DNA from: Chthoniobacterales bacterium | GTDB taxonomy: Bacteria; Verrucomicrobiota; Verrucomicrobiia; Chthoniobacterales; Chthoniobacteraceae | Direction of reading: 5' to 3' | Length of the DNA: 64,000 bases | Assembly (NCBI GenBank): GCA_038207335.1 | Contig: JBBQZX010000006.1 | Coordinates: forward strand, 1-64,000 | In this document: piece after piece, positions 1,252 to 18,225 of the stretch | Layout: every line of letters starts with the position of its first letter | Numbering within the stretch: the first letter of the stretch is position 1 | Notes under the pieces: generated by a model | Told to the model about the DNA's origin: nothing | Database searches by the model: none | The model's input: the letters and a program-made list of their open reading frames with translations, nothing else | Program-made: the position numbers and the translations under genes

Positions 1252-1277
1252 GGGGGAGCGTCGGCTCGCTGGCGCAG

Positions 1278-3545
1278 TTAGGCTGGGGACAGTTGGCCGG
1301 ATTTGCAGGCGTTGACGCGGACTGCGCATGCTTTGTAAGAGGGCTGGCGCGAGTAGGGGTCGAATGCCGGGAAGGTGAGCTGGTTTACAGTCGCGTAGTG
1401 CATCGGCAAGAAAACGTGGCCGGGTTGCACGGTATTCGTGACGAACGCGGTCGCGGTGATTTTTCCGCGGCGCGATGCGATCGTGATTGCGGCATTTGGC
1501 GCGATTCCGAGCCTTTGCGCGTCGTCGGGGTTAATTTCTAGATAGATGCTCTCGGGGTAAAGTTTTCGCAACACGTCGGATTTCCCAGTTCGTGTTTGCG
1601 TGTGCCATTGCGAGGAAGTCCCGCGCCCGGTCAGCAGGAAAAGCGGAAACTCCGCATCGGTCGGCTCGGGATTCGCGCGCGGCATTTCGAAGACAAATTT
1701 CGCCCGTCCATCCGCATGGAAAAATCGCCCATCTTCAAAAAGGCGCCGCTCGGTGGCTGGGACTTCGACGTTCGATGTTCGATGTTCGATGTTCGACGTT
1801 TTCTCCCTCTTCTCCGGCCACGGCCACTGCACGCCGCCGCACTCGTCGATCATCCGGTAGTCCTCGATCCCGCCGATGTCGCACGGCTGTCCGCGCGAGA
1901 GGCGTTTCATGATTTGAAAGACCGCCTCGGGCGACGACCACTCGCGGAACATCTCCCCGCAGCCCCAGTACTGCGCGACCAATTTGAAGATATTGAAGTC
2001 GGACAGCGCCTGCCCGGGAGCGCGTGAGATGCGCTTCACAAGTCCATGCCGGCGCTCGGAATTGATCAGCGTGCCCTCCTTTTCGCCCCAGCCGGCACCA
2101 GGCAAAACGAGGTCCGCGCGCAAAGCCGTTTCGGTCGTCGAGTACATGTCCTGAACGACGAGGAAATGGAGCTTCGAGAGGAGGTCATTGAAGCCGCTCT
2201 GGTGGATCCACGAGTGCGAAGAATTCGTTGCGATGACCCACAGGCCCTTGATCTTCCCGCTGCCGATGTCCTCGACGATCTGGTCGTAAGCCCGGCTGTT
2301 TTGCTGCGGGATCGCCGCGGGGTTGATCCGCAGTTCGCGGGCGACGTGGGCGCGGTGCTCGGCATTGAGAAAATCGTAGCCGCCCATGAGGCCCGTGACG
2401 TTTGCAAAGAGCCGTGAACCCATCGCGTTGCACTGCCCGGTGATGGAATTGGCGCCAGTGCCTGGCCGCCCGATATTGCCGGTCATCAACGCGAGATTGA
2501 TGACCGCCTGTGCCGTGCGAGTGCTCTCGTGGCCTTGATTCACGCCCATCGTCCACCAGAACGAAACGCGTTTTCCGTCCGCGATCGTCTGCGCCAAATG
2601 CCACAGCCGATCGACGCTGATCCCGCTCGCGGCGCTAACCATGTCGGGCGTGAATTGCGCGACGAACTCCGCGAATTCGTCGAACCCACTGGTGTGCGAA
2701 TCGATGAAATTGCGGTCGATCCAGTGGCTCGCGTTGAGGATGTTCGCGAGACCGTAGAGCAGCACGAGGTCGCTCTTCGGCGCAATGGCGTAGTGCTGCG
2801 TCGCGGCCATCGCGGTCTCGGTGGCGCGCGGGTCGATCACGATGATCTCGGGATTGTGCCGGTTCTTCAGCACCCGCTGCCACATGATCGGATGGGCGAT
2901 GCAGAGATTCGAGCCGATGAAAACGAGCACGTCCGACTCCTCGAAATCCGCGTAGGTGAACGGCGGTGCGTCGAAGCCGAATGACTGCTTGTAGGCCACC
3001 GCGGAGGTGGCCATGCACTGCCGCGTGTTGCTGTCGCAATGGACGAAGCCCATGCCGAATTTGAAAAGCGCGCCGAGAAACGCCATTTCTTCGGTGACGA
3101 TTTGCCCGGTGCTGAGAAAAGCCACCGACTCTGGCCCATGCTCGCGTTTGATCTCCTTGAATCGCTCGCAAAACAGCACGAGCGCGCGCTCCCAATCGAT
3201 CGGCTCGAGCTCGCCGGTGCGCTCATTTCGCAGCAGCGGAGTCGTCGCGCGATCCGGCGCGTGCAGCGGTGTGAGCGCCTCCCAGCCCTTTGGGCAAGCC
3301 ATTCCGAGGTTCACGGGGTAGTGCGTGTCGGCACTGAGATTGATCGCCTTGCCGTCCTTCAGATGCGCGTTCAGCCCACAGCCGGTGGAGCAGTATCCGC
3401 ACACGATCGTCGTCGTGTCGTCGGGTGTCAGGCGCGCGGGGATTTTGCCGAGCCCGAAGTCTCCCGGATGCAGCACCAAGTCTTCGGTCTGAGGCCCGTC
3501 CCACTGCCGCACGAGTCCGCTGATCTTCTCCACCATCGTTTTCAT
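1278..3545 (-). CDS. nasA: Assimilatory nitrate reductase catalytic subunit (Mo-bisPGD, NasA/NarB type)
   Basis: CGYCSTGC...CPKG [4Fe-4S] motif, [19 protein letters not shown]-terminal molydop-binding domain ending [14 protein letters not shown]; no Tat signal; SD AGGAGGT at 3552-3558; nitrate gene context. Confidence 0.9.
1763..1800. repeat. Tandem heptamer repeat (GTTCGAY x~5) inside nasA
   Basis: cttcgac gttcgat gttcgat gttcgat gttcgac gtt; encodes [12 protein letters not shown] on the minus strand. Confidence 0.85.
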
Positions 3546-3570
3546 AAAATTACCTCCTCAGTTTTCGGCG

Positions 3571-3646
3571 CGCGCGAAGACGCAAAGGCGCAAGGGAATG
3601 GAAACCAAACCAAGCGCGCAGCCTTGCCCCCTTGCGTCGTCGCGCG
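3571..3646. repeat. Intergenic imperfect inverted repeat (REP-like hairpin)
   Basis: cgcgcgaagacgcaaagg (3571-3588) pairs with ccttgcgtcgtcgcgcg (3630-3646). Confidence 0.5.
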
Positions 3647-3651
3647 GGCAT

Positions 3652-5322
3652 TCAAGCGGCAAATCCTCCCGGCATTCGCGGTGCCACGACCGCGGTGAAA
3701 AAACTGTAGCGCTCGATGATCCGGGCCGCTGTTGAGAGCGCTAGCGCCAGGGTGGCCGCGAGCGCGGCTGCAAGTCCAGAGCCCGCGGCGACGCAGGCGA
3801 AGGCCGCAAACGCTGTTAGTGAAAGCATCGCGGAGCAATCGAGGAGCGAGCGAAGTAATCGCCGCATCGCAAGTGCGGAGCGGTGCGCGGGGTCGTCGTC
3901 GTCGTCGAGGGAGGTGCGAAATTTGCGTGCCTCCCATCCGTTGAGACCGAGCTGAAGCAAGCCGCACGCAGCCGCCAGGATGCGTGTGGAGAGGTTGGCG
4001 GAGTGCGGGATCGAGACCCAAGCGAGGACGCAAGCGCAGCCGCTCGCGCCGAGCAGGAACGTCGTGCCGAAGAATTTCGGGAGCGTGAGTTCCTTCGTCC
4101 AAAATGGGCGGTGCGTGTCGATGTAGATCATCGCGGAGCAGGCGACGCCGATGAGGCCGAGCAACGCGGTGACAACCGCCAGCGGCGCGGCGAACGAAGC
4201 CGGAGACGCGAGCTTTTCCACCCAAGTCAGCACAGGCCACCAGCCCGAGATCGGATCCCACACGGTCGCGAGCGTGCATGCGCCCGCTGCCGCCGCGAAG
4301 ACACTGAACGCCAAAATCTCGCGACTCATCCACGAAGTCCGCAGCCCGAGGAAGAACCGCCACGCGCCGAGCGGCTTGCCGAGATGCAGCACGCTGACGC
4401 CGAGCCCGGCATTCAGGATCGCGAAGCCGGCGACCGCGAGCGGCGCTTTCATTGCGTTAAAAATCGCGGCGGATCCGAATGCGAAAACGGCGAGTGCGAT
4501 GAAAAGCCCGGCGGACATTTGTGTGAGAACGAGCATGAGGATGAGCGGCCAGTGCGCGTGCTCGAGGCGCAGCGCGTGGGCGTCGCTGGCGCGCGTGTTT
4601 TTGGGCACGGATTTACGCGTCGTGTAGCGCGTGGTCGGGATCGTGTAGGCGGAGGAAAATGTGTCCGGCAGCAGGCGATCGGCGGGCACGGTGCTCGCGG
4701 CGAATTCGGCTTTGTTGACGACGCGGATTGTGATCGCGCCGTTCGGGCAGGCCTGCACGCACGCGGGCGCTTCATTTGCCGCGAGGCGGCTGTGGCACAT
4801 GTCGCATTTCCTCACGATGCCGCGCGCCTTGGAGTATTTCGGCACGTCGTATGGGCATTTCAACACGCAGTATTGGCAGCCGATGCATTGGTCATCGAGA
4901 TGCCGCACGATGCCGGTGGCGTCGTCCTTTTCGTAGGCCGCGACGGGGCAACCATTCAGGCATGCGGGATCGACGCAGTGATGGCACGCGGAGGTTGTCG
5001 TTTGCTGATAGGGCGCGCTGCGATCACCGCCGTGGATGAAGCCGACATTCCGCCACGTTTCGTCCTCGTCGAGGCCATTGAGCGAGTGGCACGCGGAGAC
5101 GCACGCCTTGCATCCGGTGCAGGCGTCGAGATCGACGCCGAACGCGTATTGCTCGCCGGTGCGCGGCTTCTCGAGCGGAAGGAGTTCGCGGTAGTAGCGG
5201 GCCTGCGCGGGCAGTTCGCCGCCCGCGTGTTTTCGGGAAAAGCGCGCGACGGCTGTGAGTTCCTGTTGCTCGGCGAGCAGCTCGTCGATCAGCGTGCGCG
5301 GCGTTTCCGGGGCAGCGGTCAT
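3652..5322 (-). CDS. Fusion of a DmsB/NrfC-type 4x[4Fe-4S] domain and a DmsC-type membrane anchor
   Basis: [48 protein letters not shown]; then [28 protein letters not shown] and about 8 hydrophobic helices. Confidence 0.85.
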
Positions 5323-5352
5323 GCGTGATTCCGGGCAGCGCGCTCTCTCATC

Positions 5353-7149
5353 TCAATACACGTCCCGTTGGTAGCGCTTCCCGGCTTTCAGCTTTGAGAC
5401 GTATTCCACGGCCGCTTCGCTGGTGAGGCCGCCGCACTTCTGCGCGACGGTGTGCAGCGCGGCGTCCACGTCTTTCGCCATGCGGCTCGCGTCGCCGCAG
5501 ACGTAGAAGTGCGCGCCGTCCTGCAGCCATTTCCACAGCTCCGGGCCCTGCTCGATCATCCGATTCTGGACGTAGATTTTCTCCGCTTGGTCGCGCGAAA
5601 ATGCGAGGTCGAGACGTGCGAGATGTTTGTCCGCGACCCAGCCTTCGAGCTGCTCGCGGTAGAGGAAATCGGTCGCGCGTTTTTGGTCGCCGAAGAAGAG
5701 CCAGTTGCCCCCGGTAGCGCCTGTCGCGCGCCGCTCGTGCAGGAATGCGCGGAATGGCGCGATGCCGGTTCCGGGCCCGACCATGATGATCGGCGTCTCG
5801 CCAGCGGCGGGCAGGCGGAAGCTGTGCGAGGTCTGCACGAAGACCGGCACGGAGCCGTTTGCGCGGTCTGCGAGAAAGGTCGAGCAGACGCCTTTTCGCG
5901 CGCGTCCGAATGCGTCGTAGCGCACCGCGGCGACCGTGAGATGCACCTGCTCCGGGTGCGCCTTGAGGCTGGAGGAGATCGAGTAAAGTCGCGGCTGCAG
6001 CTTCTTCAGCGAGCCCACGAACTCGACCGGCGAAATTTTCGCGGAGGCAAAATCGACGAGCACATCGACGGTCTCGCGGCCCCACAAATAATGCTTCAGG
6101 GCCTCGCGCGCCGCGGGATCGAGCAGGTCTCGGAGCGTGCGATCGGCGCTGCGCTTCGCGACGAGTTGCAGCAACGGCGCGGGGACTTTCGTGATTTCGT
6201 AGTGCCGCTCCAGTGCGATGCGGAGGGGGATTTCACCTCCGTCGGGAGCGGGTGCGGCTTCTTCGCCGTCGCAGTTCAGCGCGTGCAAAATCTCGTCGAT
6301 GAGCGCGGGGCAATTCGTGGGAATCACGCCGAGCGCGTCGCCGGCTTCGTAGCTGAGGCCGGAGCCCGCGAGTGAAATCTCGAAGTGACGCGTCTCTTTT
6401 GCGGAGCCGTCGCCGGTGAGTTTCAGATTCGTGAGCAGCTTCGCGTGGAATGGGTTTTTCCGCGAATGTGCGCCGGATTCCACGGGCGCGGGTTCGATCA
6501 CCTCGACCGCTGGGGCGGCCGACGGGAGTGCGGCAGGTGCGCTCGCATCGAGCACGCTGAAGACCCCGTCGTGCCAGCGTTGATACGCGGCCTCGTAGTC
6601 CACGTTGCAATCCGCGCGCTCGAAAATCCGCTTCGCGCCCAGCGCTTCGAGCCTCGCGTCGAACTGCTTTGAGCACTCGCAGAACTTCTCATAGTTCGTG
6701 TCGCCGAGCCCGCACACGGCGAACTGCAACTGCTCGAGCCGCGGCGCGCCGGGCGCAAAAAGCGCGGCGTGAAACGCCTTCGCATTCTCGGGCGGATCGC
6801 CTTCGCCAAACGTGCTCGTGACGATGAGCGCATATTTTTCATCGCCGAGCGATGCGGGCGAAATCTTATCGAGCCCGATTGCCTTCGACTCGAAGCCGCG
6901 CTTCACCGCGGCCTTCGCGATGCGCTTGGCGAGCGCTTCGCTGTTGCCGCTTTCGGAGCCAAAATAGACGTTCACCTTCAACCGCACGGGCGTGGGAAGC
7001 GGCTCTGCCACAGTGTTTGCTGGCAGCCCTCCCGCGAAGACGCCGGCGAGGAATCCATTCAGCCACGCGCGTTGCGACGGTGAAAATGGCGCGTTGTCCG
7101 GGATGAATGGAACGAGCGCTACGGGAGCGGGAGCGGTGGACGTGGTCAT
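5353..7149 (-). CDS. CysJ-like diflavin (FMN/FAD) NADPH oxidoreductase
   Basis: Flavodoxin GSESGNS..STFGEGDPP, RLYSISSS, GVCSTFL, MVGPGTGIAPFRAF, YQRDVY end. Start placed at MTTSTAP (7149), an ATGA overlap with the nirA stop. Confidence 0.9.
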   Translation of the reverse strand: MTTSTAPAPVALVPFIPDNAPFSPSQRAWLNGFLAGVFAGGLPANTVAEPLPTPVRLKVNVYFGSESGNSEALAKRIAKAAVKRGFESKAIGLDKISPASLGDEKYALIVTSTFGEGDPPENAKAFHAALFAPGAPRLEQLQFAVCGLGDTNYEKFCECSKQFDARLEALGAKRIFERADCNVDYEAAYQRWHDGVFSVLDASAPAALPSAAPAVEVIEPAPVESGAHSRKNPFHAKLLTNLKLTGDGSAKETRHFEISLAGSGLSYEAGDALGVIPTNCPALIDEILHALNCDGEEAAPAPDGGEIPLRIALERHYEITKVPAPLLQLVAKRSADRTLRDLLDPAAREALKHYLWGRETVDVLVDFASAKISPVEFVGSLKKLQPRLYSISSSLKAHPEQVHLTVAAVRYDAFGRARKGVCSTFLADRANGSVPVFVQTSHSFRLPAAGETPIIMVGPGTGIAPFRAFLHERRATGATGGNWLFFGDQKRATDFLYREQLEGWVADKHLARLDLAFSRDQAEKIYVQNRMIEQGPELWKWLQDGAHFYVCGDASRMAKDVDAALHTVAQKCGGLTSEAAVEYVSKLKAGKRYQRDVY

Positions 7150-8939
7150 TCTGCGAACATCTCCTGGAGCGTCTTGACGCTGTGCCGCGCGGTGAATTGC
7201 ACGAACGTCTCCTGCTTGTCCGTACGCCGCGCGACATACGTTTTCAGCACTTTTTCCAACAGTGGCGGCAGCTCGGTGAATGGGATGCCGTGGAAAACCT
7301 CGCGCCCCATCGCCTGCCCGCCGACGCATTGCCCGCCGAGCAGGACGTGGTATCCCTCGACCTGCTCGCCGCTGCTGGAAACTTTGGCCCCGAGGAGGCC
7401 GATGTCGCCAATGTAGTGCTGCGCGCACGAGTGCGGGCAGCCGGTGAGGTGGATATTGATCGGCTGATCGAGCGTCAGCTTTTTCTCTAAATAGCGCGTG
7501 AGCTCGACGCCGTGGCCTTTCGTATTTGTGGAAGACCATTTGCAGCCGAGCGTGCCCGTGCAGGCCACCACTCCACCCGCGATGCTCGTCGCTTCGTGAT
7601 GAAGCCCCATCTTCACGAGGTTCTTTTTCACGGTCTCGACGAAGGCGTCTGGCACGTCCGGGATGATGAGATTTTGCCAGACCGTGAGGCGCATCGTGCC
7701 GGTGCCGTAGTTCTGCGCCACGTCCGCAATGCGGCGCATTTGCTTGGTCTTCAGCATACCGACGGGGATCACTGCGCCGATGTAATTGCGCTGCGGCTGC
7801 TTCTGCTTGAAGACGCCGATGTGGCCGTGCGCGATCGGCGGATGCGCCTGCTCGCAATCCTCGAGCGCGAGCGGCACGAGCGGAAAGGCGAGCATCTTCT
7901 CGACCTCCCCCATGAATTTTTCCGTGCCCCATTTGTCGATGAGATACTTGAGACGCGCCTTCTTGCGGTTCGTGCGATCGCCGTGCTCGTTGAAGACTCG
8001 AATGATCGCCGCGCCAACCGCCACGCAGTCGCCGGGCTTCACAACGATCCCGACATCTTTCGCAAACTGCTCGTGCCCGGTGATGCCCGCGAGCTGCACG
8101 CGGAAGTAGATGCCGGGTTCGACGCTTTTGCCGACCGGCACGCGCACGGCGACGAAGCCGATGTCATTGGTATCCGCGACCGTGCCGATCGAGCCGCCGC
8201 CGTCGAAGCTTACGTTGAACTTGCGCGGGATGCCGTAGAGGTCACGGTTGTTCAGGATGTAATAGTGCAGGCCTTTGGCCATCGGGCGCGTGTCGATCAG
8301 CTCGGACGGGTCGATGCCAGCCGTCGGCGAGGCGGTGATATTGCGCACGTTATCGACGCCTGAGCCGCGCGAGGTGAGCCCGAGTTCTTGCAGCTTGGTG
8401 AGCACCTTCACCATGTTCTTTGGCTGAATGTCGCGCACTTGGATGTTTGCGCGCGTCGTGATTTGTGCGTGTCCGCCGCCCCATTCGTCCGCGATGTCCG
8501 CGATTCCGATGAGCTGCGCGGAACTGACTTCGCCGGCCGGCAGTCGAAGCCGCAGCATCATGGAATTCTGCGCGGGCGCGACATAGAAAAGCCCGTGGAA
8601 GCGGAATAGGAACGTCAGCTTTTTGTCGGGGAATTTATTCTCCGCCGCGTGGGTCATCAGCTCGTCCCAGGTGTCGAGCCCGTTGCGCTCCATCTTCCAG
8701 ATTTCCTGCTCGCACAGATCGCCGAGCGGAGTGCCGAAGAGCGTTTGCTCTCCAGCCTCCGCTTGCGGCTCGGCGACATTCATCAGCCCCGACGCGGGCG
8801 TGCTTGTGATCTGACCACTCGGCAGATGGCCGACGAACGGCACCGAGGTCCGGCAAGTCACTCCGGCTAGGTATCCCTGGAGATACTGCTTCTGTTCGGG
8901 GCTAAAGGAAGGATCGGCAAGAAGTGCGTCGGCGTTCAT
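7146..8939 (-). CDS. nirA: Siroheme nitrite reductase (NirA family)
   Basis: ITTRANIQ, SGVDNVRNI, PRKFNVS; CTGTLGC and GCPHSC siroheme/[4Fe-4S] ligands. Confidence 0.9.
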   Translation of the reverse strand: MNADALLADPSFSPEQKQYLQGYLAGVTCRTSVPFVGHLPSGQITSTPASGLMNVAEPQAEAGEQTLFGTPLGDLCEQEIWKMERNGLDTWDELMTHAAENKFPDKKLTFLFRFHGLFYVAPAQNSMMLRLRLPAGEVSSAQLIGIADIADEWGGGHAQITTRANIQVRDIQPKNMVKVLTKLQELGLTSRGSGVDNVRNITASPTAGIDPSELIDTRPMAKGLHYYILNNRDLYGIPRKFNVSFDGGGSIGTVADTNDIGFVAVRVPVGKSVEPGIYFRVQLAGITGHEQFAKDVGIVVKPGDCVAVGAAIIRVFNEHGDRTNRKKARLKYLIDKWGTEKFMGEVEKMLAFPLVPLALEDCEQAHPPIAHGHIGVFKQKQPQRNYIGAVIPVGMLKTKQMRRIADVAQNYGTGTMRLTVWQNLIIPDVPDAFVETVKKNLVKMGLHHEATSIAGGVVACTGTLGCKWSSTNTKGHGVELTRYLEKKLTLDQPINIHLTGCPHSCAQHYIGDIGLLGAKVSSSGEQVEGYHVLLGGQCVGGQAMGREVFHGIPFTELPPLLEKVLKTYVARRTDKQETFVQFTARHSVKTLQEMFAE

Positions 8940-8961
8940 GAGTGAGTGGAGTTGGTTTGAG

Positions 8962-9807
8962 TTAGACAGCGGGCTCGCCGAGCGCGGCGGCCATGGCGGG
9001 TTGAGTAACGGCGGCGGGTGTCTTCGGTCCGTGCGTCAGGTAGAGCGCGAGACCTGTGAAAAGGAACCCGCCCACGATGTTTCCGAGCGTCACCGGGATT
9101 TGATTCCACAGCCACCAGTCGGAGAAGGTCACCTTTGCGCCGAGCAACATGCCCGTCGGAATGACGAACATATTCACGATGGAATGCTCGAAGCCCTGCG
9201 CGAAGAAGATGAAGATCGGAATCCAGGCGCCGACGATCTTTCCCACGGTAGAGCTGGAGGTCATTCCCATGACTACGCCGAGACACACCATCCAATTGCA
9301 AAGGATGGCTTTGACGAACACGGTGAACATCCCGGCTGCGCCGAACTTCGCGTAGCCGATGGTCTTGGCCTGCGCGATGGCGACGAGCTTTGCCGCGATT
9401 CCGGTCGTGTCGGCGGTGTGGCCCATCATGGTGAGCGACACGTAGAGCAGCAGCCCGTAGAAGACGCTGCCGAGCAGGTTGCCGAGCAAGACCCAGCCGA
9501 GGTTTGCGGTCATTGTGCCAAAGCCGAGCTTTCCCTCGCGCCATGCCAGCGGAAGGAGCGCAAAGCTTCCAGTCGCCAGCTCCAACCCCAGCAGGACAAT
9601 CATTACGAAGCCAACCGGGAAGATGAGCGCGCCCACGAGCGGCACATTCGTCTGAGTCGCGCCCATGATGGCGAGGCTCGTGGCATAGCCCAGCAGCGCC
9701 CCGGAAAGGAAGCCGCGAATGAGCAGGTCTTTGACGCCTAGCGCGCCCTTGGTCGCGCCGGCATTGATCATCGTCGTAACGACGTCGGCAGGTTTTACGT
9801 AGTCCAT
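8962..9807 (-). CDS. Formate/nitrite transporter (FNT) family channel, probable nitrite channel
   Basis: GLELATG, AILCNWMVCL, FEHSIVNM, VTLGNIVGG. Confidence 0.9.
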   Translation of the reverse strand: MDYVKPADVVTTMINAGATKGALGVKDLLIRGFLSGALLGYATSLAIMGATQTNVPLVGALIFPVGFVMIVLLGLELATGSFALLPLAWREGKLGFGTMTANLGWVLLGNLLGSVFYGLLLYVSLTMMGHTADTTGIAAKLVAIAQAKTIGYAKFGAAGMFTVFVKAILCNWMVCLGVVMGMTSSSTVGKIVGAWIPIFIFFAQGFEHSIVNMFVIPTGMLLGAKVTFSDWWLWNQIPVTLGNIVGGFLFTGLALYLTHGPKTPAAVTQPAMAAALGEPAV

Positions 9808-9837
9808 AGTTGCAGGTCTTTTAGTTGGTATTTCGTA

Positions 9838-11286
9838 TTAGAAATTCAGCGTCGCCATGACGTATCCGAAGTCCGCGCCGTCGTGCTGCCCGGTCTCTTG
9901 CAGGTAGTCACCCGCGAAGAAGTGACTGTAGCCTGCCTGGAAGCTCAGTTGCTTCACTGGCGTGTAAGTCACGGTGAAGTCCAGTTCCGCGCCGACGTAG
10001 CTGCTTGCGTTGCGGGCAGCGGCGTTGAGCGGGCGGACGGTCGTCACACCATTCGCACGATACCAACTGTCCTCAGTGGTCGCGAGGAAGAATGCGTGGC
10101 CGTCGAGTTGCGCGGTGACTTTGCTGCACGGCGACACGCGGAGGCTGAGTTCCGGGTTGTGGATATTCTGCCATGAGAAGAGATCCATGTAGCCGTAGAA
10201 CTTGTGGTTCGTCGGGAACAGATTCTGGAACGTCTGGATGTCATTATCAGTCGCGTCTTCGTCGCCGCTGGCGAAGTTGTATTCGGCGAAGATTCGCGGC
10301 TTCCATGGCGTATTGAGGAAGTTGTAGCCAAGTCCCGCGTGAATGGCGAAAGCCGTCAAATCGAGGCCCCGCACCTGGCCGGTTTGAAAGGCAAACTCGC
10401 CCTCGTATTCAAACCCATGCAGCTTCTTGGGATCGGCTTTGATCCGCGTTCCGAGTGTGATGAAGTCCGTTCGTTTTCCCGTCACGCCATTGGACGGGGC
10501 AGGTGAAGTGATCGCTGGCGTCGTTGGAAGAGCGTTCTGCTGGTCGAGCACGAGCGCATACACGTCGGTGCTCTGAAAATCCAACACGCTGGTGCTAAAA
10601 TAGACGCCGCTGAGGACCTGCTCGCGATGGGTCTCGGAGCCGTTGAAGAGGTCGGACTGATTGTAGGAATCGCGATAGATGTTCACCACCGTCGAGGTGA
10701 AGGCATCGATCGAGTACTTCGGCTGTTGGAAGTGAATCTTTACTGCATCGAAAGTGCGGCTGAAGTTGTTCCAATCGAATCCGCCGACGAGCCGCTCATC
10801 GCCGTAGCTCAGGATTTGTCGGCCTGCGGTAACGTTCAACCACTTCGGGCCGATCTGGATGTAGCCCTGCCGGAGGTCGAAGGTGTCATCGCCTTCCGCT
10901 CCAAACGCGCCGGGGATATTGGGTCGGTCGGAGTCGATCTCGCGAGAGTCCTGGCCTTGGGCGTAGATTTTCAGCCAGTCGGTGGGCTTAATCGCGACGC
11001 CGATGCGGAAGCGCTGGAGCAGGTATGCGTCGTCGGTCTGCGAGTGGATGCTGTCGGCGAAGTCGAAGTTGTTGTCGCGTACTTCGAAGCGCAGGCGCTC
11101 CTGCACGTCGAAGCAGATTTTTCCGTCCAGGAAACACAGGGGGTTGCTTTCCGGCGCGGGTGCGATAACGAGTTTGTCGCCGGCTGATTTCGCATCTGTT
11201 CCGCCAAAAGCGGAAATGAAACTGCTGGTTAGGAGCGCTGCCGCAAGCAGCGCTCCGCTTTTTTTGTCGTGGTGTCGTTTGATCAT
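9838..11286 (-). CDS. Outer-membrane beta-barrel of the alginate export (AlgE-like) family
   Basis: Signal peptide after MIKRHHDKK; GRQILSYGDERLVG, FQNLFPTNHKFYGYMD; C-terminal Phe. Confidence 0.8.
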   Translation of the reverse strand: MIKRHHDKKSGALLAAALLTSSFISAFGGTDAKSAGDKLVIAPAPESNPLCFLDGKICFDVQERLRFEVRDNNFDFADSIHSQTDDAYLLQRFRIGVAIKPTDWLKIYAQGQDSREIDSDRPNIPGAFGAEGDDTFDLRQGYIQIGPKWLNVTAGRQILSYGDERLVGGFDWNNFSRTFDAVKIHFQQPKYSIDAFTSTVVNIYRDSYNQSDLFNGSETHREQVLSGVYFSTSVLDFQSTDVYALVLDQQNALPTTPAITSPAPSNGVTGKRTDFITLGTRIKADPKKLHGFEYEGEFAFQTGQVRGLDLTAFAIHAGLGYNFLNTPWKPRIFAEYNFASGDEDATDNDIQTFQNLFPTNHKFYGYMDLFSWQNIHNPELSLRVSPCSKVTAQLDGHAFFLATTEDSWYRANGVTTVRPLNAAARNASSYVGAELDFTVTYTPVKQLSFQAGYSHFFAGDYLQETGQHDGADFGYVMATLNF

Positions 11287-11363
11287 GTTGAGGTGCCTGT
11301 CGTTGGTGTGGAGATGCTCCTCCGTTTTGGTTGGGTTGGGTTTCCGATTCGCGGGCATGCAGA

Positions 11364-12227
11364 TCAGAGGTGCGCTGCGGGGACTTTTTCGCTGGAAGAT
11401 TTGGACGGCTTCGGCGGGGGCGCGGCGGGAGATTCGGCGACCTGCTGACGCTTGTGCGCGTGCACTTCGAGGAACTCGATGAGGTGCTCGCGGAGTCGGT
11501 AGTAGTCAGGGTGCTCCATGACGGCCTTGCGATCGCGGGGGCGCGGAAAGTTTACCTCGAGGATGTCGCCGACCTCGGCGGCCGGGCCGTTGGTCATCAT
11601 TACGATTCGGTCGCTGAGAAAGAGGGCCTCATCGACGTCGTGAGTCACCATGAGCGCGGTCTTTTGGTCGCGACTCCAGAGCTCTATGAGCACTTGTTGC
11701 AGCTCGAAGCGAGTAAGCGAATCGAGCATTCCGAAGGGCTCGTCGAGCAGCAGCATCTTCGGCGAAAGTGCGAATGCTCGCGCGATGCCGACTCGCTGCC
11801 TCATGCCTTGCGAAAGCTCGCCGGGCATCCGCTCGAAGGAATCGGAGAGACCTACGACCGAGAGGTAGTATTCCGCGATTTCGCGCCGTTCAGCCTTGCT
11901 TGCGGTGTAAAAGACCTGGTTCACGCCGAGCATGACATTTTCAAAAGCCGAGAGCCAGGGGAGCAGGCTCGGAGATTGAAAGACGACCCCGCGATCGGGG
12001 CCGGGGCCTGTGACTTCCTTGCCAGCCAGGATCACTCCGCCGGAGGTGATGCTATTGAGCCCGGCCACCATCGAAAGGACGGTGGATTTTCCACAGCCCG
12101 AGTGGCCGATGAGTGTGATGAACTCACCCTTTTTCACCTTCAGGTCGAAGTCCTTGACGATGATCGCAGGGCCGCGCGGGGTGTCGTAGCTCTTTGTGAG
12201 CTGGGATATGTCTAGGAAGTGACTCAT
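11364..12227 (-). CDS. nrtD: Nitrate ABC transporter ATP-binding subunit
   Basis: [40 protein letters not shown]. Confidence 0.85.
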
Positions 12228-13138
12228 GCGTCCACCTCCACGGATTCTCGCTTCACTTCACCACGCCGGGTCGGTCGCCGTCCGCCGAAGAGCGGGCGCG
12301 GATGCGTCAGGTCTTCGGGCTCGATCGCTGGCAGGCTGAGCTTGCGCGAGACTTGCACGCGCTTCTTGCCGCCGGCTCCCAGCAGGTATCCTATCACGTC
12401 ACGCCGGATGGCTTTGAATCGGTCGTCGTGATTTAGCCCCTTGCGGTCGCGCGGGCGCTCGATATCGACCTTTACCGATGGCCCGAGCGTGGCGTTCGGA
12501 CCGGCGCTCAGCGGGATGATTCGGTCGGCCATGAGGATGCCTTCGTCCACGTCATTTGTGATGAGTACTACCGTGCGCTTGTCCTGCTCCCAGATGCGCA
12601 CGATCTCGTCTTGAAGCGTCGCCCGGGTGAGTGCGTCGAGCGCGCCGAGCGGTTCGTCGAGCAGGAGGATTTGGGGCTCCATCGCTAGCGCGCGGGCCAC
12701 GGAGACGCGCTGCCTCATGCCGCCGGAGAGTTCGCCTGGTTTCTTGTCGCGAGCCGGTGTGAGACTTACCATTGCGATGTATTTCTCTGTGTGCGCGCGG
12801 CGCTTGTCGGCGGACCAGTTTGGAAAGATTCGATCGGTCGCGAGCGCGATGTTTTCATAAACGCTGAGCCAGGGGAGCAGCGCGTAATTTTGAAAGACCA
12901 AGCCACGATCCGGGCCGGGCTCGGTGATCTCCAACCCATTCAGCGTGACGTTGCCCGTGTCGGCGCGGATGAGTCCCGCGATGAGGGAGATGAGTGTCGT
13001 CTTGCCCGCGCCGGAGTACCCGACGATGGCCACGAACTCGCCCTTCTCGATCTCGAGATTGATGTCGTGCAGGACATCCATCCTGCGACCGCTGGGGCCG
13101 AATCCTTTGCTGACGTTGTGCAGATTAAGGAAGGCCAT
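12224..13138 (-). CDS. nrtC: Nitrate ABC transporter ATP-binding subunit
   Basis: [30 protein letters not shown]. Confidence 0.85.
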
Positions 13139-14158
13139 TTAGTGAATCGTGGCGGTCTTGTCGTAGCTCACGAGCTTCTGGAAGGTGATCATCACGCGAT
13201 CGAGCAGGAAGCCGATGCCGCCGATGGTGAAGACCGCGACCATGATCTGCGCGAGGGTCTGGCTGCTGCCGTTTTGGAACATGTCCCAGACGAATTTTCC
13301 GAGACCGGGATTCTGCGCGAGCATTTCGGCGGCGATGAGCACCATCCAGCCGACACCCAGCGAGAGGCGCAGGCCGGTGAAAATGAGCGGCATCGCGGAT
13401 GGGATGACGATTTTGAAAATCTGAGTCAGCCAGCCGAGCTTCAGAACTTTGGCGACATTGAGGTAGTCCTTGTCGATCGAAGCGACACCCAGGGCCGTGT
13501 TGATGAGCGTCGGCCAGAGCGAGCAAAGCGCTACGGTGATGGCCGAGCTGAGGAAAGACTTCTCGAAGAACGGCTCGGTCGGATTGTAGAGCGCGCTGAC
13601 CATGATCATCACGATCGGCAGCCACGCCAGCGGCGAGACGGGCTTGAAGATTTGGATGAAAGGATTTACCGCCGCGAAGAAGCCGCGGCTGAGTCCGCAA
13701 ACGATGCCGACTGGAACGGCAATCAGTGAGGCAATGACGAAGCCGGCGAAGACGGTCTTCAGACTCGTGAGGATTTGATCGAGATAGGTCGGCGGGCCGG
13801 AGTATTTGCGGTTCGGGTAGGTACGATCAGGGAATTTCGCGAGATACTTCGCCTTTTTTGCTCCTTCTTCTTTGTAGAACTCCACGGCCTTTGCGCGCTG
13901 CTCCCAGTGGTCTTTCCACATCTCTCCGGCCTGATGCCATACCGCGATGGGACCCGGGATTGAGCCGAAGCTCACCTTCACATTCGCAGCCACGAGCCCC
14001 CAGGCGAGGAGGAAGATCGAGAAGGCCACGACGGGCGCTCCAATGAGGGTCGCGATCTTTTGGAGTTGTTCCTTCGGGTTGTCGCCGGAAGCGATGCGAA
14101 AGAACGGCGAGAACCAGGTGAGGCCCGCGTTGTCGAAGGCGTTGGCGAGTTGTCTCAT
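13139..14158 (-). CDS. nrtB: Nitrate ABC transporter permease
   Basis: [39 protein letters not shown]. Confidence 0.9.
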
Positions 14159-14161
14159 AGG

Positions 14162-15502
14162 TTAGTCTTTGAGTCCGACTTTCAGGCTCTTGAGGTAGGC
14201 ATTTGGCGTGTGGCCATCGTAGGTCACGCCATCGATGAAGTTCTTGTCCGCGGGCTTGAAGCCATCTGTCTTAGGCACTTCAGCAGCGGTGACTTGCTTC
14301 TCGGCAATCAAGGCGTTCGCGGCTTTGAGGTAGATGTCCGGCCGGTAGATTTCCTTCGCTGTTTTCAGGTACCATTCATCGGTCTTGGTCTCTCCAATCT
14401 GGCCCCAGCGGCGCATCTGAGTGAGGAACCAGACGCAATCGCTGAAGTAAGGATAGCTGGCGTAGTAGCGATAGAAGACGTTGAAGTCCGGCATCTCGCG
14501 CTTGTCTCCCTTCTCGTATTCGAAGGTGCCCGTCATGCTGTTTGCGATGACCGCGTAGTCGGCGCCGACGTATTCGGGTTTGGAGAGTATCTCGCACGCC
14601 TTCTTGCGGTTCGCCGGGGTCGCATCGAGCCATTTGCTGGCGCGGATGAGCGCCTTCACGACTGCGACGTGGGTGTTCGGGTTCTTCTTGTCCCACTCGG
14701 CGGTGACTCCGAAGACTTTCTCCGGGTTGTTCTTCCAGATCTCCAGGTCGGTGACGACCGGCACACCAATGCCTTTGAAGACTGCTTGTTGATTCCACGG
14801 CTCACCGACGCAGTAGCCCTGGATCGTTCCCTGCGCGAGCGTCGAGGGCATCTGCGGCGGTGGAGTGACGGAGAGCAGCACGTCGGCGTCCGTTGTGCCC
14901 GTCGTGTCTCCGCCGGTGTAGTAGCCGGGGCTTATGCCTGCCGCGGCGAGCCAGTAGCGGAGGTAGTAGTTATGAGTCGAGACCGGGAAGACCATTCCGA
15001 ACTTCAGCGGCGTGCCCTTGTCTTTGTAGCTCTGCACGATCGACTTGAGCGGCGTGGCCGAGATGGGATGCGGCGGCTTTGCCTGTGCCAGCGCTGGATC
15101 GGCGGCTTTCATCTGCGCCCAGATGTCATTGGAGACGGTGATGCCGTTGCCGTTGAGATCCATGCTGAAAGCCGTGATGACTTGCGCCTTCGTCCCGACT
15201 CCGATGCTGGCACCGATGGGCTGGCCGGCCAGCATGTGTGCGCCGTCGAGTTCGCCGCTGATGACACGGTCGAGAAGGATCTTCCAGTTCGCCTGCGCCT
15301 CGACTGTTACAAAGAGACCTTCGTCCTCGAAGTAGCCGAGTTCTTTCGCGATGACGAGCGGCGCGCAGTCGGTGAGCTTGATGAAGCCGAACTTGAGCTC
15401 GTCTTTTTCCAGCTTCGGGGCGGCGTGGCTCGTGGTGGTGGTGAAGAGGATTGCGAGAAGTGTCGCGGTAAAGTGACGGCGGGTGAGATGGTATTTTTTC
15501 AT
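14162..15502 (-). CDS. nrtA: Nitrate ABC transporter substrate-binding protein (NrtA/CmpA family)
   Basis: Signal peptide; [37 protein letters not shown]. Confidence 0.9.
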
Positions 15503-16539
15503 GAAGTCAGAAGAGCGTCCGGGAGGAGTTCAGCGGCTTGCTTGAAGATGTCCGCGCGAAAGCAGTCGCGGGCGCGGGGAAGGGGATCGGCGATAATGCC
15601 GTTGGCGCGGAGTCCTTCGATGAGCCAGTGCGCTTGATTGGCGGATGGTTCGTTGGCTTTGCCGCCGGCGAAGACGTGCATCGCGAGTTGCTCTTCGATG
15701 CGCCCATTTCCGTAGTCGAAGGAGCCGGCCATGCTCATGCGGAGCGTGTTGGCGGATGCGCCGACGTATCTTGAGCGGGCGAGCGTCTCGATGACTTGTT
15801 CGCGGTTTTCCGGAGCTTCGCAAAAGCGGCAGGCTTCGAGCAGTGCTGCGATGAGTGCGAGATGTTCTCCTTCAAAGGACTCTGAAAAGTCGCGGCGCAC
15901 CATGAGGACCTTCTCCATGTGGCCGGGCGCGAGGTCCGCGCTCGTGGCCACGCACCAACCGGTCTTCGCGGCGACGGCCACGGAGTTCCACGGCTCGCCG
16001 ACGCAGTATCCATCGAGGTGCCCGGCTTTCAGGTTGCGGTGCATTTGTGTGGGCGGCACGACCACGATGCGCACGTCGCTGCAGGGCTCGATCTCGTGCG
16101 AACTGAGCCAGGTGCGGAGAAGGATGTTGTGCGACGAAAAGGGGTGGACCACCCCGAAGGTGAACTTCCGCCGCCCCCTGGCGATCTCCCGCCGGAGCGT
16201 GGCCCCATCGCGCACGCCGTCGCGCCACAGCGATTGCGCAAGCGTGATCGCATTCCCGTGGAGGCTCAGCACGAGCCCCGTCAGGCACTCCGCCTGCATC
16301 GACCCGAGCCCGAATGTGGCGGAAGCGAGCAGCCCGGCGGGTGCCTGCGCGGCCTCCAGCTCTCCGTAGATGACCTTGTCGCGGATACTGGCCCAGCCGA
16401 TCTCGCGGTGCAGCTCGACTTCGAGGCCGTGCGCGTGAAAAAGCCCGAGTTCCTCCGCCATGACGAGCGGTGCGGAGTCCGTTAGCGCCACGAAACCTAG
16501 GCGGAGCGGGCTTTTGCGGGTGTGTGTCGTTTTGAGCAT
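15499..16539 (-). CDS. Cytoplasmic NrtA-like nitrate sensor (NasS-like)
   Basis: [37 protein letters not shown]; no signal peptide. Start placed at MLKTTH. Confidence 0.75.
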
Positions 16540-16573
16540 CGAGTGGCTGAATCCTGCGATGCCAAACCCATTT

Positions 16574-16589
16574 AGCTGCCGCGGTGCCA
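16574..16589 (-). promoter_or_regulatory. Putative sigma54 (-24/-12) promoter for the nitrate operon
   Basis: Minus strand TGGCACCGCGGCAGCT has exact GG-N10-GC spacing, 35 bp upstream of the NasS-like start. Confidence 0.55.
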
Positions 16590-16638
16590 CGCCGCCCCGG
16601 ATGCACTTAGAAATAACTTTCGACTTTTCGATTGGAAT

Positions 16639-16659
16639 GATGAATGAAATTCATTCATG
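16639..16659. promoter_or_regulatory. Palindrome overlapping the LysR start, candidate LysR operator
   Basis: ATGAATGAA-A-TTCATTCAT perfect dyad in the divergent intergenic region. Confidence 0.5.
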
Positions 16660-17562
16660 TCCGATCCACTAGACAGCAGACAGCTCCGAGCCTTCTCGAT
16701 CCTCGCGCGCACGGGCAGTTTCACCCAGACCGCGAACGAACTTCACCTGAGCCAGTCGGCGATCAGCCACTCCATGAAGGCACTGGAGAGCGATATTGGC
16801 TGTCGGCTTTTGGACAGGCTGGGCAAAACGGCAGTGCTCACGCAGGCGGGCGAGCAGCTTCTCGTTCATGCGGAGAAGATCCTCGAGGAGATGACGGTCG
16901 CCCGGGCGGAGTTGGGGCATCTTGGCAAGTGGGGCAGCAGCCGCCTCCGCATCGGTGCCAGCACCACGGCCTGCCAATACATTCTCCCAACCGTCCTGCG
17001 CGAGTTCAAGGAGAGCTTCCCCGGCTGCGTCATCTCCATCACCCCCGGCGACACCCCGGCGAACATTGACGTCCTCCGCGCCCACCAGATCGACCTCGCC
17101 GTGAATCTCGAGCCCCGCCGCGAGGAACTGCTCGAGTTCCGCCCGCTCTTCACCGACGAACTGCAATTCGTCCTTTCACCCCTCCACCCCTGGGCGAAAG
17201 CCGGCCGCGTCAGCCGCGACGAAATCGCGCGTCAGCACTACATCCTCTACGGCAAGACCAGCTACACCTTCGACCTCATCGAAGACTACTTCCGCAGAGA
17301 CCAGATAGTCTTGCATAGTCAGCTCGACATGGGGAATATGGAAGCAATCAAGGAACTCGTGAAGCTCGGCCACGGCATCAGCATTCTCGCCCCATGGACT
17401 CTTCATAAAGAGGTGAAGGAAGGCTCCCTCGTCACCCTCCCTCTCGGCAAGCGCAAGCTCAAGCGCCGCTGGGGCGTGCTCCACTGGCGCGGCCGCCGGC
17501 TCAGCCTCGCCGAGGAGACCTTCATCGGCCTTTGCGAAAGTGTCGGCGAGAGCCTCGGTTGA
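16657..17562 (+). CDS. LysR-family transcriptional regulator
   Basis: GSFTQTANELHLSQSAISHSMKALE HTH; LTQAGE; RLRIGASTT; NMEAIKELVKLGHGISIL. Confidence 0.95.
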   Translation: MSDPLDSRQLRAFSILARTGSFTQTANELHLSQSAISHSMKALESDIGCRLLDRLGKTAVLTQAGEQLLVHAEKILEEMTVARAELGHLGKWGSSRLRIGASTTACQYILPTVLREFKESFPGCVISITPGDTPANIDVLRAHQIDLAVNLEPRREELLEFRPLFTDELQFVLSPLHPWAKAGRVSRDEIARQHYILYGKTSYTFDLIEDYFRRDQIVLHSQLDMGNMEAIKELVKLGHGISILAPWTLHKEVKEGSLVTLPLGKRKLKRRWGVLHWRGRRLSLAEETFIGLCESVGESLG

Positions 17563-17619
17563 TCACCCATTCCCGGCCTCGTGAAAATCGCACCTCTCCA
17601 GAGCCACACCTCGGCCGGC

Positions 17620-18225
17620 ATGTTCCTCCCCGTCTTTCTCCTTACCTGTCCCGAGCGCGAAGCCGCCTGTGCCGACACCCTCGCCGCGTGGGCTCGCACC
17701 GACTGGGGCAACACGCCACCCGAGGTTTATTGCAACCCCGACGCCGATCCCCAACCCGCCGTCCGCATCATGCGCGGCATGGCCACCCTCCTCCGGCGCG
17801 GCATCGACACCGGCGCCCCGCACTTCCTCATCATCGAGGACGATTGCGACTTCCACCCCCGCCTCCTCGCCCTTGTCCGTGCGTGGCCACCCCTCCGAAG
17901 CGGCACCCTCCACTTCGGCAGCCTCTACGACCCCGGCGTTCCATTCCTCAGCGTCCACCCCGCCGCGCACATTACCGTCGCGCACCCGCGCGATGCCTTT
18001 GGCTCCCAAGCCCGCATCTACTCCCATCGCTGCGCCGAGCATATTCTCCACCGCCTGCATGCGCCCGGCATCCGCCACGACCTCCAGTGCGCGCACCTCG
18101 CCGACGATCTCGGCCCGCTCTACTACCACCGCCCCAGCCTCGTCCAACACCGCCCCGTCCCCAGCACATGGAACGGCCCCGCGCACAGCGCCGACAGCTT
18201 CGACCCCGAGTGGGAAGGGGAGTGA
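17620..18225 (+). CDS. Small GT-A glycosyltransferase, paralog of 331-1251
   Basis: FLIIEDDCDF, HFGSLY, FGSQARIY, RPSLVQH..STW. Confidence 0.6.
   Translation: MFLPVFLLTCPEREAACADTLAAWARTDWGNTPPEVYCNPDADPQPAVRIMRGMATLLRRGIDTGAPHFLIIEDDCDFHPRLLALVRAWPPLRSGTLHFGSLYDPGVPFLSVHPAAHITVAHPRDAFGSQARIYSHRCAEHILHRLHAPGIRHDLQCAHLADDLGPLYYHRPSLVQHRPVPSTWNGPAHSADSFDPEWEGE

Follow-up and report, generated by a model that had tools for sequence, protein, structure and literature searches.

The window analysed here is a stretch of 64,000 nucleotides from a Chthoniobacterales bacterium, close to whose start a gene cluster related to nitrate utilization is located. The following genes were assigned.

1278..3545, reverse strand: Mo-bisPGD catalytic subunit of the Nas/Nap clade, 755 aa (Pfam, structure relative, tree)
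3652..5322, reverse strand: DmsB-DmsC-type fusion, 556 aa in a single reading frame (Pfam, structure model)
5353..7149, reverse strand: CysJ-like NADPH diflavin reductase, 598 aa (Pfam/NCBIfam, locus comparison)
7146..8939, reverse strand: NirA-family sirohaem nitrite reductase, 597 aa (NF007126, 835 bits; cut-off 523)
8962..9807, reverse strand: formate/nitrite transporter, FNT (Pfam)
9838..11358, reverse strand: Alginate_exp-family outer-membrane protein (porin), recurrent in such clusters (Pfam, locus comparison)
11364..15502, reverse strand: NrtABCD-type ABC transporter with binding protein, permease and two ATPases, the ATPases named from sequence
15499..16590, reverse strand: another NMT1_2-family protein (NrtA/NasS-like), with which the cluster begins (Pfam)
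16657..17562, forward strand: divergent regulator, recurring at the same position (locus comparison), which we take to be of the LysR type from its sequence pattern

The first-pass annotation had placed the Mo gene in an assimilation operon, and the NirA-family reductase, the FNT protein and the NrtABCD-type transporter are indeed encoded upstream on the same strand. Also as described there, a fusion of a 4x[4Fe-4S] domain to a DmsC-type anchor precedes the Mo gene; it is encoded in one frame that ends 106 bp upstream. The Mo gene is preceded by a GAGGAGG ribosome site, and a promoter and terminator scan of positions 1000-17700 yielded none above shuffles (2 vs. 2.9; 23 vs. 16.7 ± 4.4). The genome encodes two futalosine-pathway menaquinone genes, NuoD and two ACIII-like clusters, while NarG is absent from it. 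Its other Mo enzyme (G000 C6:107865-110489), for which no family match exceeded the cut-off, was rejected as a partner, since it carries a Tat-like SRRSFL motif and no adjoining FeS or anchor gene was listed.

Three features were located in the Mo subunit.

3423..3515, reverse strand: clade-specific N-terminal extension, residues 11-41 (alignment, complex model)
3294..3401, reverse strand: FS0 [4Fe-4S] motif C49-x2-C52-x3-C56...C84 (Pfam, alignment)
3012..3017, reverse strand: Mo-ligand Cys177 with Met178 next to it, as in nitrate reductases (active-site comparison)

The Pfam domains are arranged in the order Molybdop_Fe4S4 (residues 48-88), Molybdopterin (99-525) and Molydop_binding (635-741). 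Nothing was found C-terminal of the latter in the Pfam scan, neither a [2Fe-2S] nor a flavin electron-input domain, and residues 1-60 contain no twin-arginine motif, in agreement with the Tat-less Nas-type subunit without C-terminal [2Fe-2S] domain seen in the first pass. A Tat-like motif ahead of the Mo core was present in 0/67 loci. All four cysteines of FS0 are invariant (75 rows), as are G17, T20, G33 and P36 of the extension. The active site is of the nitrate type (Cys177-Met178, Gln371), with the motifs NTRQCM and TGQCN, compared to NPRLCM and TGQPN in NapA and RxCH and RGQNN in formate dehydrogenases (Fdh). The closest solved relative is NapA of D. desulfuricans (2jio, E 1e-108). In a phylogeny of the kind suggested by the first-pass annotation, a 34-row tree without the characterised NarB of cyanobacteria or NasC of B. 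subtilis, the fusion-adjacent Mo subunits formed one branch (99/99) within the Nas/Nap group, with the NapA rows branching separately and two Fdh rows apart; the subunit is placed among the Nas/Nap nitrate reductases, whose active-site residues it retains.

Identity as formate dehydrogenase or DMSO reductase was rejected from the active-site residues and the tree; in particular, the active site lacks the Cys/Sec-His and the Arg expected of an FdhF-type formate dehydrogenase. Nap membership was rejected because the absence of a Tat signal argues against a periplasmic location and the NapA rows form another branch. Nar membership was rejected because the Mo subunit does not belong to the NarG clade (29 bits with TIGR01580; cut-off 1084) and the anchor is not of the dihaem NarI type. 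DmsABC proper would need a Tat-exported DmsA-clade subunit, which is missing, and the anchor is predicted not to face the periplasm. The Mo subunit shares with Nas enzymes a Cys-ligated nitrate-type pocket of the Nas/Nap clade, the lack of a Tat signal and a cluster for nitrate uptake and sirohaem-dependent nitrite reduction. Its scores with the curated Nas models, which are lineage-specific, are below their cut-offs (NF047855, 402 vs. 1100; NF041323, 438 vs. 1000).

In the fusion, four features were located.

5149..5295, reverse strand: conserved N-terminal extension, residues 10-58 (alignment, complex model)
4723..5151, reverse strand: 4x[4Fe-4S] domain, residues 58-200, with 16 Cys in four groups (alignment)
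4318..4386, reverse strand: predicted quinol site His313, Ser330 and Glu335 (alignment to E. coli DmsC)
3694..4554, reverse strand: 8-helix DmsC/NrfD-type anchor, residues 257-543, predicted N-in/C-in (prediction, structure model)

Pfam assigned Fer4 domains to residues 58-200 and DmsC to residues 257-440 (E 6e-15). The complete set of 16 cysteines is present in 127/128 homologue rows, and the FeS domain is 36% identical to E. coli DmsB. His313, Ser330 and Glu335 align to His65, Ser82 and Glu87 of E. coli DmsC and are invariant in 128/128 homologues; mutational support for DmsC His65 and Glu87 is cited in PMC8076601. The TM8 arginine (R538) is kept in 126/128 rows, whereas the window copy departs from the majority at the position of DmsC Glu267, with Arg534 in place of the Glu found in 98/128 rows. 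Together with a 4x[4Fe-4S] subunit and an 8-helix cofactor-less anchor, the His/Ser/Glu quinone site and the TM8 Arg are the features of complex iron-sulfur molybdoenzymes (CISM) with an NrfD/DmsC-type anchor, such as DmsABC, PsrABC and SoeABC, and the fusion has all of them. The AlphaFold2 model (pLDDT 93.9) was matched by Foldseek to PsrB/NrfC-type and PsrC/ActC-type chains. The origin of the anchor is not discriminated by the HMM scores, which are about equal (SoeC-like 78 bits, DmsC 72). In a second fusion lineage, grouped as a sister with a support of 84/58 only, the spacing of the quinol-site residues is identical in 119/120 relatives. Among the best relatives listed, 120/120 have Fer4 and DmsC matches on one chain, and with so many relatives an artefact of a single genome or assembly is excluded. 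At E<=1e-30, 790 cluster representatives (50% identity) match the fusion, not all of them confirmed as full fusions, and in the plasmid collection no record spans 80% of it.

The sum of Lys and Arg in the anchor is higher on the N-terminal side than on the other side in 128/128 rows (mean 14.9 vs. 2.0). A SoeC-like control showed the same bias (17 vs. 0) and E. coli DmsC the opposite one (3 vs. 7), while a Tat-like motif was found in 0/128 fusions. From this charge bias, the FeS domain is predicted to face the cytoplasm, in line with the first-pass topology, and the anchor to be inverted relative to DmsC.

The complex of Mo subunit and fusion was modelled with a score of 0.89, compared to 0.00 for the best of three controls; the mark applied is reached by 116/157 solved and 2/215 mismatched pairs, our own alignments lying outside the calibration of the tool. 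Between runs, 92% or more of the contacts coincide, and the partner pLDDT is at least 87. In the predicted interface, the FS0 loop (82-88) touches the first cluster (72-81) of the fusion, and the clade-specific N-terminal extensions of both proteins are included. The high score may result from resemblance to solved pairs of the PsrAB/FdhAB/ArrAB type.

A full or near-full match to the fusion was found in 29/301 Verrucomicrobiota genomes, and a Mo subunit of at least 54% identity in 29/29 of these, so the two genes are inherited together. The module is carried by about a tenth of the sampled genomes in two abundant phyla (29/301 and 20/201, one further match being a different system); the pair is also present in Planctomycetota, Myxococcota and Poribacteria, and thus co-occurs across phyla. 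Cultured carriers include Adhaeretor mobilis, Rubritalea profundi, Cerasicoccus frondis, Luteolibacter spp., Verrucomicrobium sp. and Sorangium spp. The Mo gene lies directly downstream of the fusion in 26/27, 66/75 (GTDB) and 18/20 evaluable loci. In the other nine GTDB loci, including L126, L135 (2.5 kb gap), L152 and L162, it does not; in 5/5 unlinked loci tested, a set outside which these four fall, it was found elsewhere in the genome. The nitrite reductase and transporter genes around the pair differ between loci. At least one gene for a nitrite reductase or a nitrate transporter was identified in 115/128 loci, ten of the other 13 being short contigs. Genomes with a Nas fused to an NADH domain (G035, G080 and G268) have no fusion match; strict mutual exclusion with self-sufficient Nas was rejected, since L091 has the pair and a second Nas, so that only a trend is left. 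G071 encodes a Mo subunit of the sister branch (L060, 53%) without extension and without adjoining fusion. Two Sorangium genomes each hold further Nas-like paralogues, and a case for the pair as the sole nitrate reductase of nitrate-grown Sorangium could not be made.

Taken together, the pair is probably a menaquinol:nitrate oxidoreductase that faces the cytoplasm and serves assimilation. The domain composition, the residues of the active and quinol sites, the lack of export signals and the joint inheritance of the genes are observed; fold, topology and complex are model-based predictions, and we infer quinol as donor, the direction of electron flow and the assimilatory role. The computational checks suggested in the first pass all favour its quinol-fed, membrane-bound reading. 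Electrons would pass from the respiratory quinone pool via the anchor and the FeS wire to the Mo subunit and to nitrate for growth, and the nitrite formed would be reduced by NirA with electrons from the CysJ-like NADPH flavoprotein, or by NirBD in other phyla. Menaquinone has a potential of about -75 mV. Reduction of nitrate by menaquinol would be strongly downhill, given a nitrate/nitrite potential of +433 mV (PMC10100899). An enzyme with both sites facing the cytoplasm would be electroneutral; electrons entering via complex I would still pump protons before they reach nitrate, an option that is closed to a Nas fed by NADH.

The CysJ-like flavoprotein encoded directly upstream of the fusion, an obvious rival electron donor, had been omitted from the first-pass annotation. 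The complex might form and yet receive NAD(P)H electrons via this protein, NirBD or ferredoxin, with the anchor as a tether or a valve for surplus electrons to the quinone pool. Flavoprotein donors are established for Nas (Flp, PMC4724949; NasBG, PMC6618116; NasN, PMC7816997), a similar FeS protein is paired with an FAD oxidoreductase in the near Cetobacterium branch, and a soluble source of reductant, CysJ-like or NirBD, is available to every locus, either encoded within it or within reach; such a source feeds the nitrate reductase in Paracoccus (PMC6618116). We nevertheless regard this as unlikely: the CysJ-like gene co-occurs with NirA in 58/58 loci, never without it, and is absent from 30/30 NirB loci, which keep the pair. 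The CysJ-like protein and NirA have a common N-terminal motif absent from fusion and Mo subunit, which suggests that it is the donor of NirA; as a constant donor of the pair it is not supported, since it tracks NirA and not the fusion. A plain tether would not need the invariance of His313, Ser330 and Glu335 or the conserved spacing in the second lineage.

The pair might instead be a quinol:nitrate oxidoreductase with a mainly dissimilatory role, as electron sink or in low-oxygen respiration, and assimilation as secondary use. Respiratory CISM enzymes are built in this way (PMC8076601), NarK-type transporters are encoded in 53/128 loci, NarG is missing from the genome and the second fusion lineage adjoins nifH in G071. 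A dissimilatory main role is unlikely in view of NirA or NirB in the cluster and of the NrtA-type ABC binding protein in 41/128 loci, typical of nitrate scavenging for growth. It is very improbable that the nitrate context is incidental and that the Mo subunit acts on a different compound (formate, DMSO or a sulfur oxyanion), even though the best NCBIfam score of the Mo subunit is that of Fdh-alpha (451 bits, then NasA_Halo with 438, all below cut-off) and databases label the fusion as formate dehydrogenase iron-sulfur subunit or DMSO reductase anchor, given Cys-Met and Gln where Fdh has Cys/Sec-His and Arg, the tree position and the nitrate-related genes in most loci.

As a quinol-fed assimilatory enzyme, the pair can be compared with several known systems. 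NarI is a dihaem cytochrome b, whereas the membrane part of the anchor has a single invariant His (128-row alignment); NarG is of an unrelated clade, but NarGHI likewise reduces nitrate at the cytoplasmic side with quinol and is able to supply growth nitrogen, an assimilatory use reported for Mycobacterium tuberculosis (PMC7816997, citing Malm 2009). With NasA, NasC, NarB and NasN the pair shares a cytoplasmic Cys-ligated Mo-bisPGD subunit with FS0 and no export signal, encoded together with a nitrate transporter and a sirohaem-dependent nitrite reductase. The donors named for these in PMC6618116, PMC4724949 and PMC7816997 are NADH flavoproteins, ferredoxin and fused diflavin domains, while the constant partner here is the 4x[4Fe-4S]-DmsC fusion; according to a family-wide phylogeny, no member of the NasA/NapA/FdhH clade has canonical four-cluster or anchor subunits (PMC7331816). 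SoeABC of Allochromatium vinosum and Aquifex aeolicus also consists of a Mo subunit, a 4x[4Fe-4S] subunit and a DmsC-type anchor of eight helices with His65/Ser82/Glu87, for which an inverted orientation towards the cytoplasm has been proposed (PMC8076601), and the charge bias of the SoeC-like control is that of the fusion; this sulfite:quinone oxidoreductase differs in catalytic clade, substrate, reverse electron flow and unfused B and C subunits. E. coli DmsABC resembles the pair in DmsB and in the quinol residues of DmsC, but DmsAB is Tat-exported and periplasm-facing, the charge bias is opposite and the catalytic clade another. The Cetobacterium locus L167 (clostridial/fusobacterial-type), with L060 the nearest non-fusion branch (100/100), encodes a homologous 16-Cys FeS partner (34% identical) as a free protein followed by an FAD oxidoreductase, without membrane anchor; its annotation is generic only, and it would be a cytoplasmic nitrate reductase. 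ForCE of Bacillus subtilis is a menaquinone-linked molybdoenzyme of the Fdh/Nas clade in the cytoplasm, but oxidizes formate and has a DUF1641 partner without transmembrane helices (PMC8808070).

The first-pass statement that the system fits none of the Nas, Nar and Nap types holds for the subunit composition, whereas quinol-fed assimilation as such (M. tuberculosis NarGHI) and an inward-facing DmsC-type anchor as such (SoeABC) are not new. No description of a Nas-clade Mo subunit paired with a DmsBC fusion was found in a literature search of limited depth that covered few subscription papers. Such fusions may be present, unremarked, among the 793 ‘DmsC’ and 239 ‘SoeC’ sequences in PMC8076601. 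Tentatively, the pair might represent a fourth class of prokaryotic nitrate reductase by architecture, in which a Nas-clade subunit and a DmsBC fusion of inverted orientation, encoded by two genes, form a quinol:nitrate oxidoreductase facing the cytoplasm. This enzyme would be the main assimilation route in much of Verrucomicrobiota, Planctomycetota and Myxococcota, conserve energy via complex I and possibly also via the NrfD-type anchor, and now be counted as DMSO reductase or formate dehydrogenase in metagenomes. In an Arctic metagenome, ‘dmsBC’ DMSO reduction was partly assigned to Opitutales (PMC11790911); these calls may represent the Nas-linked fusion. The annotation of ‘dmsBC’ in metagenomes may need correcting: a Cerasicoccus genome with the fusion has a Nas-type subunit as its only Molybdopterin match (E<=1e-15).

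Classically, quinol is the donor of respiratory nitrate reductases, whereas assimilatory ones draw on NAD(P)H or ferredoxin. If the proposed function is true, the module would break this donor split and the no-partner rule of PMC7331816 in about a tenth of the sampled genomes of two phyla, and the energy balance of cells growing on nitrate would have to be revised. It would also add a second case to the inverted anchors of the DmsC type and, with two genes only, be a convenient system for asking whether such anchors move protons.

The gene pair on which the first-pass annotation had based a candidate quinol-fed assimilatory nitrate reductase was recovered on the minus strand, with Pfam domains that match the claim. 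The annotation had named Mo subunit phylogeny, co-occurrence, complex modelling and FeS domain topology as checks.

1278..3545, minus strand: Mo subunit, 755 aa, three Pfam domains as in Mo-bisPGD catalytic subunits
3652..5322, minus strand: fusion protein, 556 aa, Fer4 domains with 16 Cys followed by Pfam DmsC

Both ORFs are separated by 106 bp, and the Mo subunit ends only 14 residues past its last Pfam domain. Encoded 5' of the fusion on the minus strand are a CysJ-like diflavin reductase, a NirA-family nitrite reductase, an FNT channel, an Alginate_exp porin, an NrtABCD-type transporter and a second NrtA-like protein. The genome (5.17 Mb, 94.7% complete; window at C6:1-64000) has Chthoniobacteraceae as closest named relatives. 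Convergent with the Mo gene lies a 306-aa ORF (331-1251), glycosyltransferase-like in its C-terminal half (LEDD motif), for which a Pfam and NCBIfam search gave no match. An SLC13/TrkA-C-like transporter (21473-23344) appears in the ORF list in three frames (21503-22243, from 22357, and 22763-23344), possibly a frameshifted gene. Beyond the window (G000, C6:107865-110489), an 875-aa molybdoenzyme with a Tat-like motif is encoded, which was over the cut-off for no NCBIfam family and next to which an FeS/anchor gene was not seen.

The fusion was aligned with its relatives (128 full-length sequences out of 269), and the resulting AlphaFold2 model (mean pLDDT 93.9) contained eight long C-terminal helices. 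By Foldseek, the N-terminal part resembles FdnH, ArrB and PsrB, and the C-terminal part, with weaker matches, ActC and PsrC. All 16 cysteines are kept in 127/128 rows. Quinone-site residues of E. coli DmsC listed in the accessible part of PMC8076601 are Ser62, His65, Ser82, Glu87 and Arg271, which align (K-12 sequence) with Ser310, His313, Ser330, Glu335 and Arg538 of the fusion. His313, Ser330 and Glu335 occur in all 128 fusions, Arg538 in 126 and Ser310 in 88. Residue 534 is Arg in the window and Glu in 98/128 rows.

For the anchor, eight helix spans were set by us from the family hydropathy profile and K+R counted per side. The N-terminal side was higher in 128/128 fusions (mean 14.9 vs 2.0); periplasm-facing E. 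coli DmsC gave 3 vs 7, and an Azospirillum protein adjoining xsc, which we take to be SoeC-like, gave 17 vs 0. No Tat-like motif was detected within residues 1-50 of the 128 fusions or N-terminal to the Mo core in 67 loci; at most 30 codons lie between the fusion stop and Mo residue 11 in 58 of these 67. Because of the K+R bias and the missing Tat-like motifs, the FeS domain, the quinol site and the Mo subunit are all predicted on the cytoplasmic side.

Modelled together, Mo residues 1-748 and fusion residues 5-250 scored 0.89 (best control 0.00), with a contact agreement between runs of at least 92% and a partner pLDDT of at least 87; the mark applied is reached by 116/157 solved complexes and 2/215 mismatched pairs. 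The tightest modelled contacts connect the loop (82-88) of FS0, the [4Fe-4S] cluster of the Mo subunit, to the first cluster motif of the fusion (72-81), and both N-terminal extensions specific to the clade (Mo 13-39, fusion 10-43) are part of the interface. The model supports binding of the Mo subunit to the fusion, although the pass may reflect likeness, since like complexes are already solved.

In the window's phylum, 29 of the 301 genomes, the own one among the 29, have a full or near-full fusion match, and all 29 have the Mo subunit at ≥54% identity; two more genomes carried contig-edge Mo-gene fragments alone, without a fusion match. Since kin are not independent, neither these counts nor the ones below amount to a statistical test. 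The pair also occurs in further phyla. A GTDB scan (13 of 64 parts; E≤1e-3, thus including unfused FeS proteins) yielded 590 stretches with a relative, the best 80 of which belong to Verrucomicrobiota, Planctomycetota, Myxococcota and Poribacteria, a few record labels being discordant. Of 201 genomes of Adhaeretor's phylum, 21 matched, one of them (L217) with a different system. The Mo gene directly follows the fusion in 26/27, 66/75 and 18/20 evaluable loci of three sets that share a few loci (6 loci ended too early). Five unlinked cases searched genome-wide all carry the Mo gene elsewhere (57-62% identity), with no panel nitrogen genes close by. In Luteolibacter-like genomes (L138, L141, L142, L145 and L146), NirA still adjoins the fusion and the Mo gene has moved far off.

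A more distant fusion (35-39%) was found in genome G071 and five planctomycete genomes, with relatives named from Pontiella, Omnitrophota, Latescibacteria and Hydrogenedentota. Its Mo subunit reads GNTTLCM, NirA or NirB plus NarK adjoin, and the His-Ser-Glu spacing is kept in 119/120 relatives; its placement as sister of lineage 1, the window-type pair, is weakly supported (84/58). One G071 cluster (L060-L061, C1:425000-460000) combines two Nas-type subunits, this second fusion, NrtABCD, NarK, a truncated NirB-like flavoprotein and a multihaem cytochrome, directly followed by nifH and further nitrogenase-like genes.

As electron donor to the nitrate reductase, the CysJ-like flavoprotein was weighed against the fusion. 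The 128 loci contain NirA (76), NirB (30), NrtA-type (41) and NarK-type (53) genes; a full CysJ-like gene occurs in 58, every one with NirA, and in 0/30 NirB loci. Additionally, CysJ-like protein and NirA (window genes 5353-8939) have in common an N-terminal motif, FSPxQxxxLxG[FY], likely a docking helix, which fusion and Mo subunit are without. Because it tracks NirA and shares its motif, the CysJ-like flavoprotein goes with nitrite reduction; the fusion accompanies the nitrate reductase. No fusion match was obtained in three genomes whose Nas has a fused NirB-like NADH domain. The Cetobacterium locus encodes a Mo subunit, a 135-aa FeS protein with 16 Cys (34% identical to the FeS domain of the fusion) and an FAD oxidoreductase; the FeS wire is as in the fusion, but the input differs, as a swap between soluble and quinone input would look. 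Two loci count against a strict rule: L091 carries two Nas types, and L060 a sister-branch Mo subunit without extension and without adjoining fusion. For the window pair, a soluble donor instead of quinol is regarded as unlikely. Seven loci have only a flavodoxin-sized CysJ-like version adjoining NirA. A possible regulator, which we take to be a PP2C-phosphatase/kinase fusion, adjoins NarK at L121:6080-7846 and in 23 further loci.

Present in the own genome are two menaquinone proteins of the futalosine pathway, NuoD and two ACIII-like clusters (names assigned by sequence); NarG and NirB over the cut-off were not found in it. Menaquinol would be oxidised at the inward-facing anchor, and electrons would pass via the four clusters of the fusion and FS0 to Mo. 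Nitrate imported by NrtABCD would be converted to nitrite by the Mo subunit and reduced further by NirA with NADPH via the CysJ-like protein. We consider this whole route probable; the annotated membrane-bound, cytoplasm-facing, quinol-fed enzyme is favoured by the predicted anchor orientation and the invariant His-Ser-Glu set. A mainly dissimilatory role is rather improbable.

The Mo subunit remained below the cut-off of all curated models, with Fdh-alpha (451 bits), NasA_Halo (438) and NasC (402) close together. Among solved structures, D. desulfuricans NapA is its best relative (E 1e-108), NTRQCM/TGQCN in the window aligning with NPRLCM/TGQPN; in a formate dehydrogenase, His follows the ligand and RGQNN is read. 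N-T-R-Q-C-M is present in the window and all 35 lineage-1 panel rows (fusion-linked or same-clade). In a maximum-likelihood tree (34 rows, rooted on two Fdh rows), ten lineage-1 subunits form one branch (99/99), joined by L060 and the Cetobacterium enzyme at 100/100, among nitrate-type enzymes and separate from NapA, proteobacterial, Bacteroidota-type and NasN-type rows. A quickly built tree, with 43 of the 62 rows, gives the same picture. Reference rows are plasmid-borne or E. coli genes, cyanobacterial NarB and B. subtilis NasC being left out; two are presumably from S. meliloti and P. denitrificans, labels assigned by us as the source records are without annotation there. A substrate other than nitrate is very improbable. 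Inside the Mo gene (1764-1800), the 7-bp tandem repeat TTCGATG (5.3 copies) encodes in frame a variable loop (pLDDT <50 at residues 582-590). L068:8281-13332, L069 and L238 encode another Mo enzyme type (YNGRLCM/GQGNGQ), outside Nas/Nap in the tree; genes for a free FeS protein, a Rieske protein and an MFS transporter come next.

As a general rule, quinol feeds Nar and NADH feeds Nas (accessible part of PMC6618116), and flavoprotein and NasN variants of Nas donors appear in the accessible parts of PMC4724949 and PMC7816997. The Nas/Nap/FdhH clade is said to be without four-cluster and anchor partners (PMC7331816). The combination of a Nas-clade subunit with an FeS/DmsC fusion was not found described in open-licence literature, nor is the pair mentioned in the accessible parts of PMC10100899, PMC10609526 and PMC12769810. 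Each element has precedent: assimilatory NarGHI in M. tuberculosis (PMC7816997), inverted SoeC (PMC8076601) and menaquinone-linked ForCE (PMC8808070), as far as these sources are accessible, and, in Flammeovirga, a Tat-type Nap alongside FeS and NrfD genes. The module is set apart from Nar, Nap and DmsABC, and in subunit make-up it agrees with none of the annotated Nas, Nar and Nap types. It would work like a quinol oxidoreductase of the CISM class (Mo subunit, four-cluster subunit and NrfD/DmsC-type anchor), with a catalytic subunit that places it in Nas.
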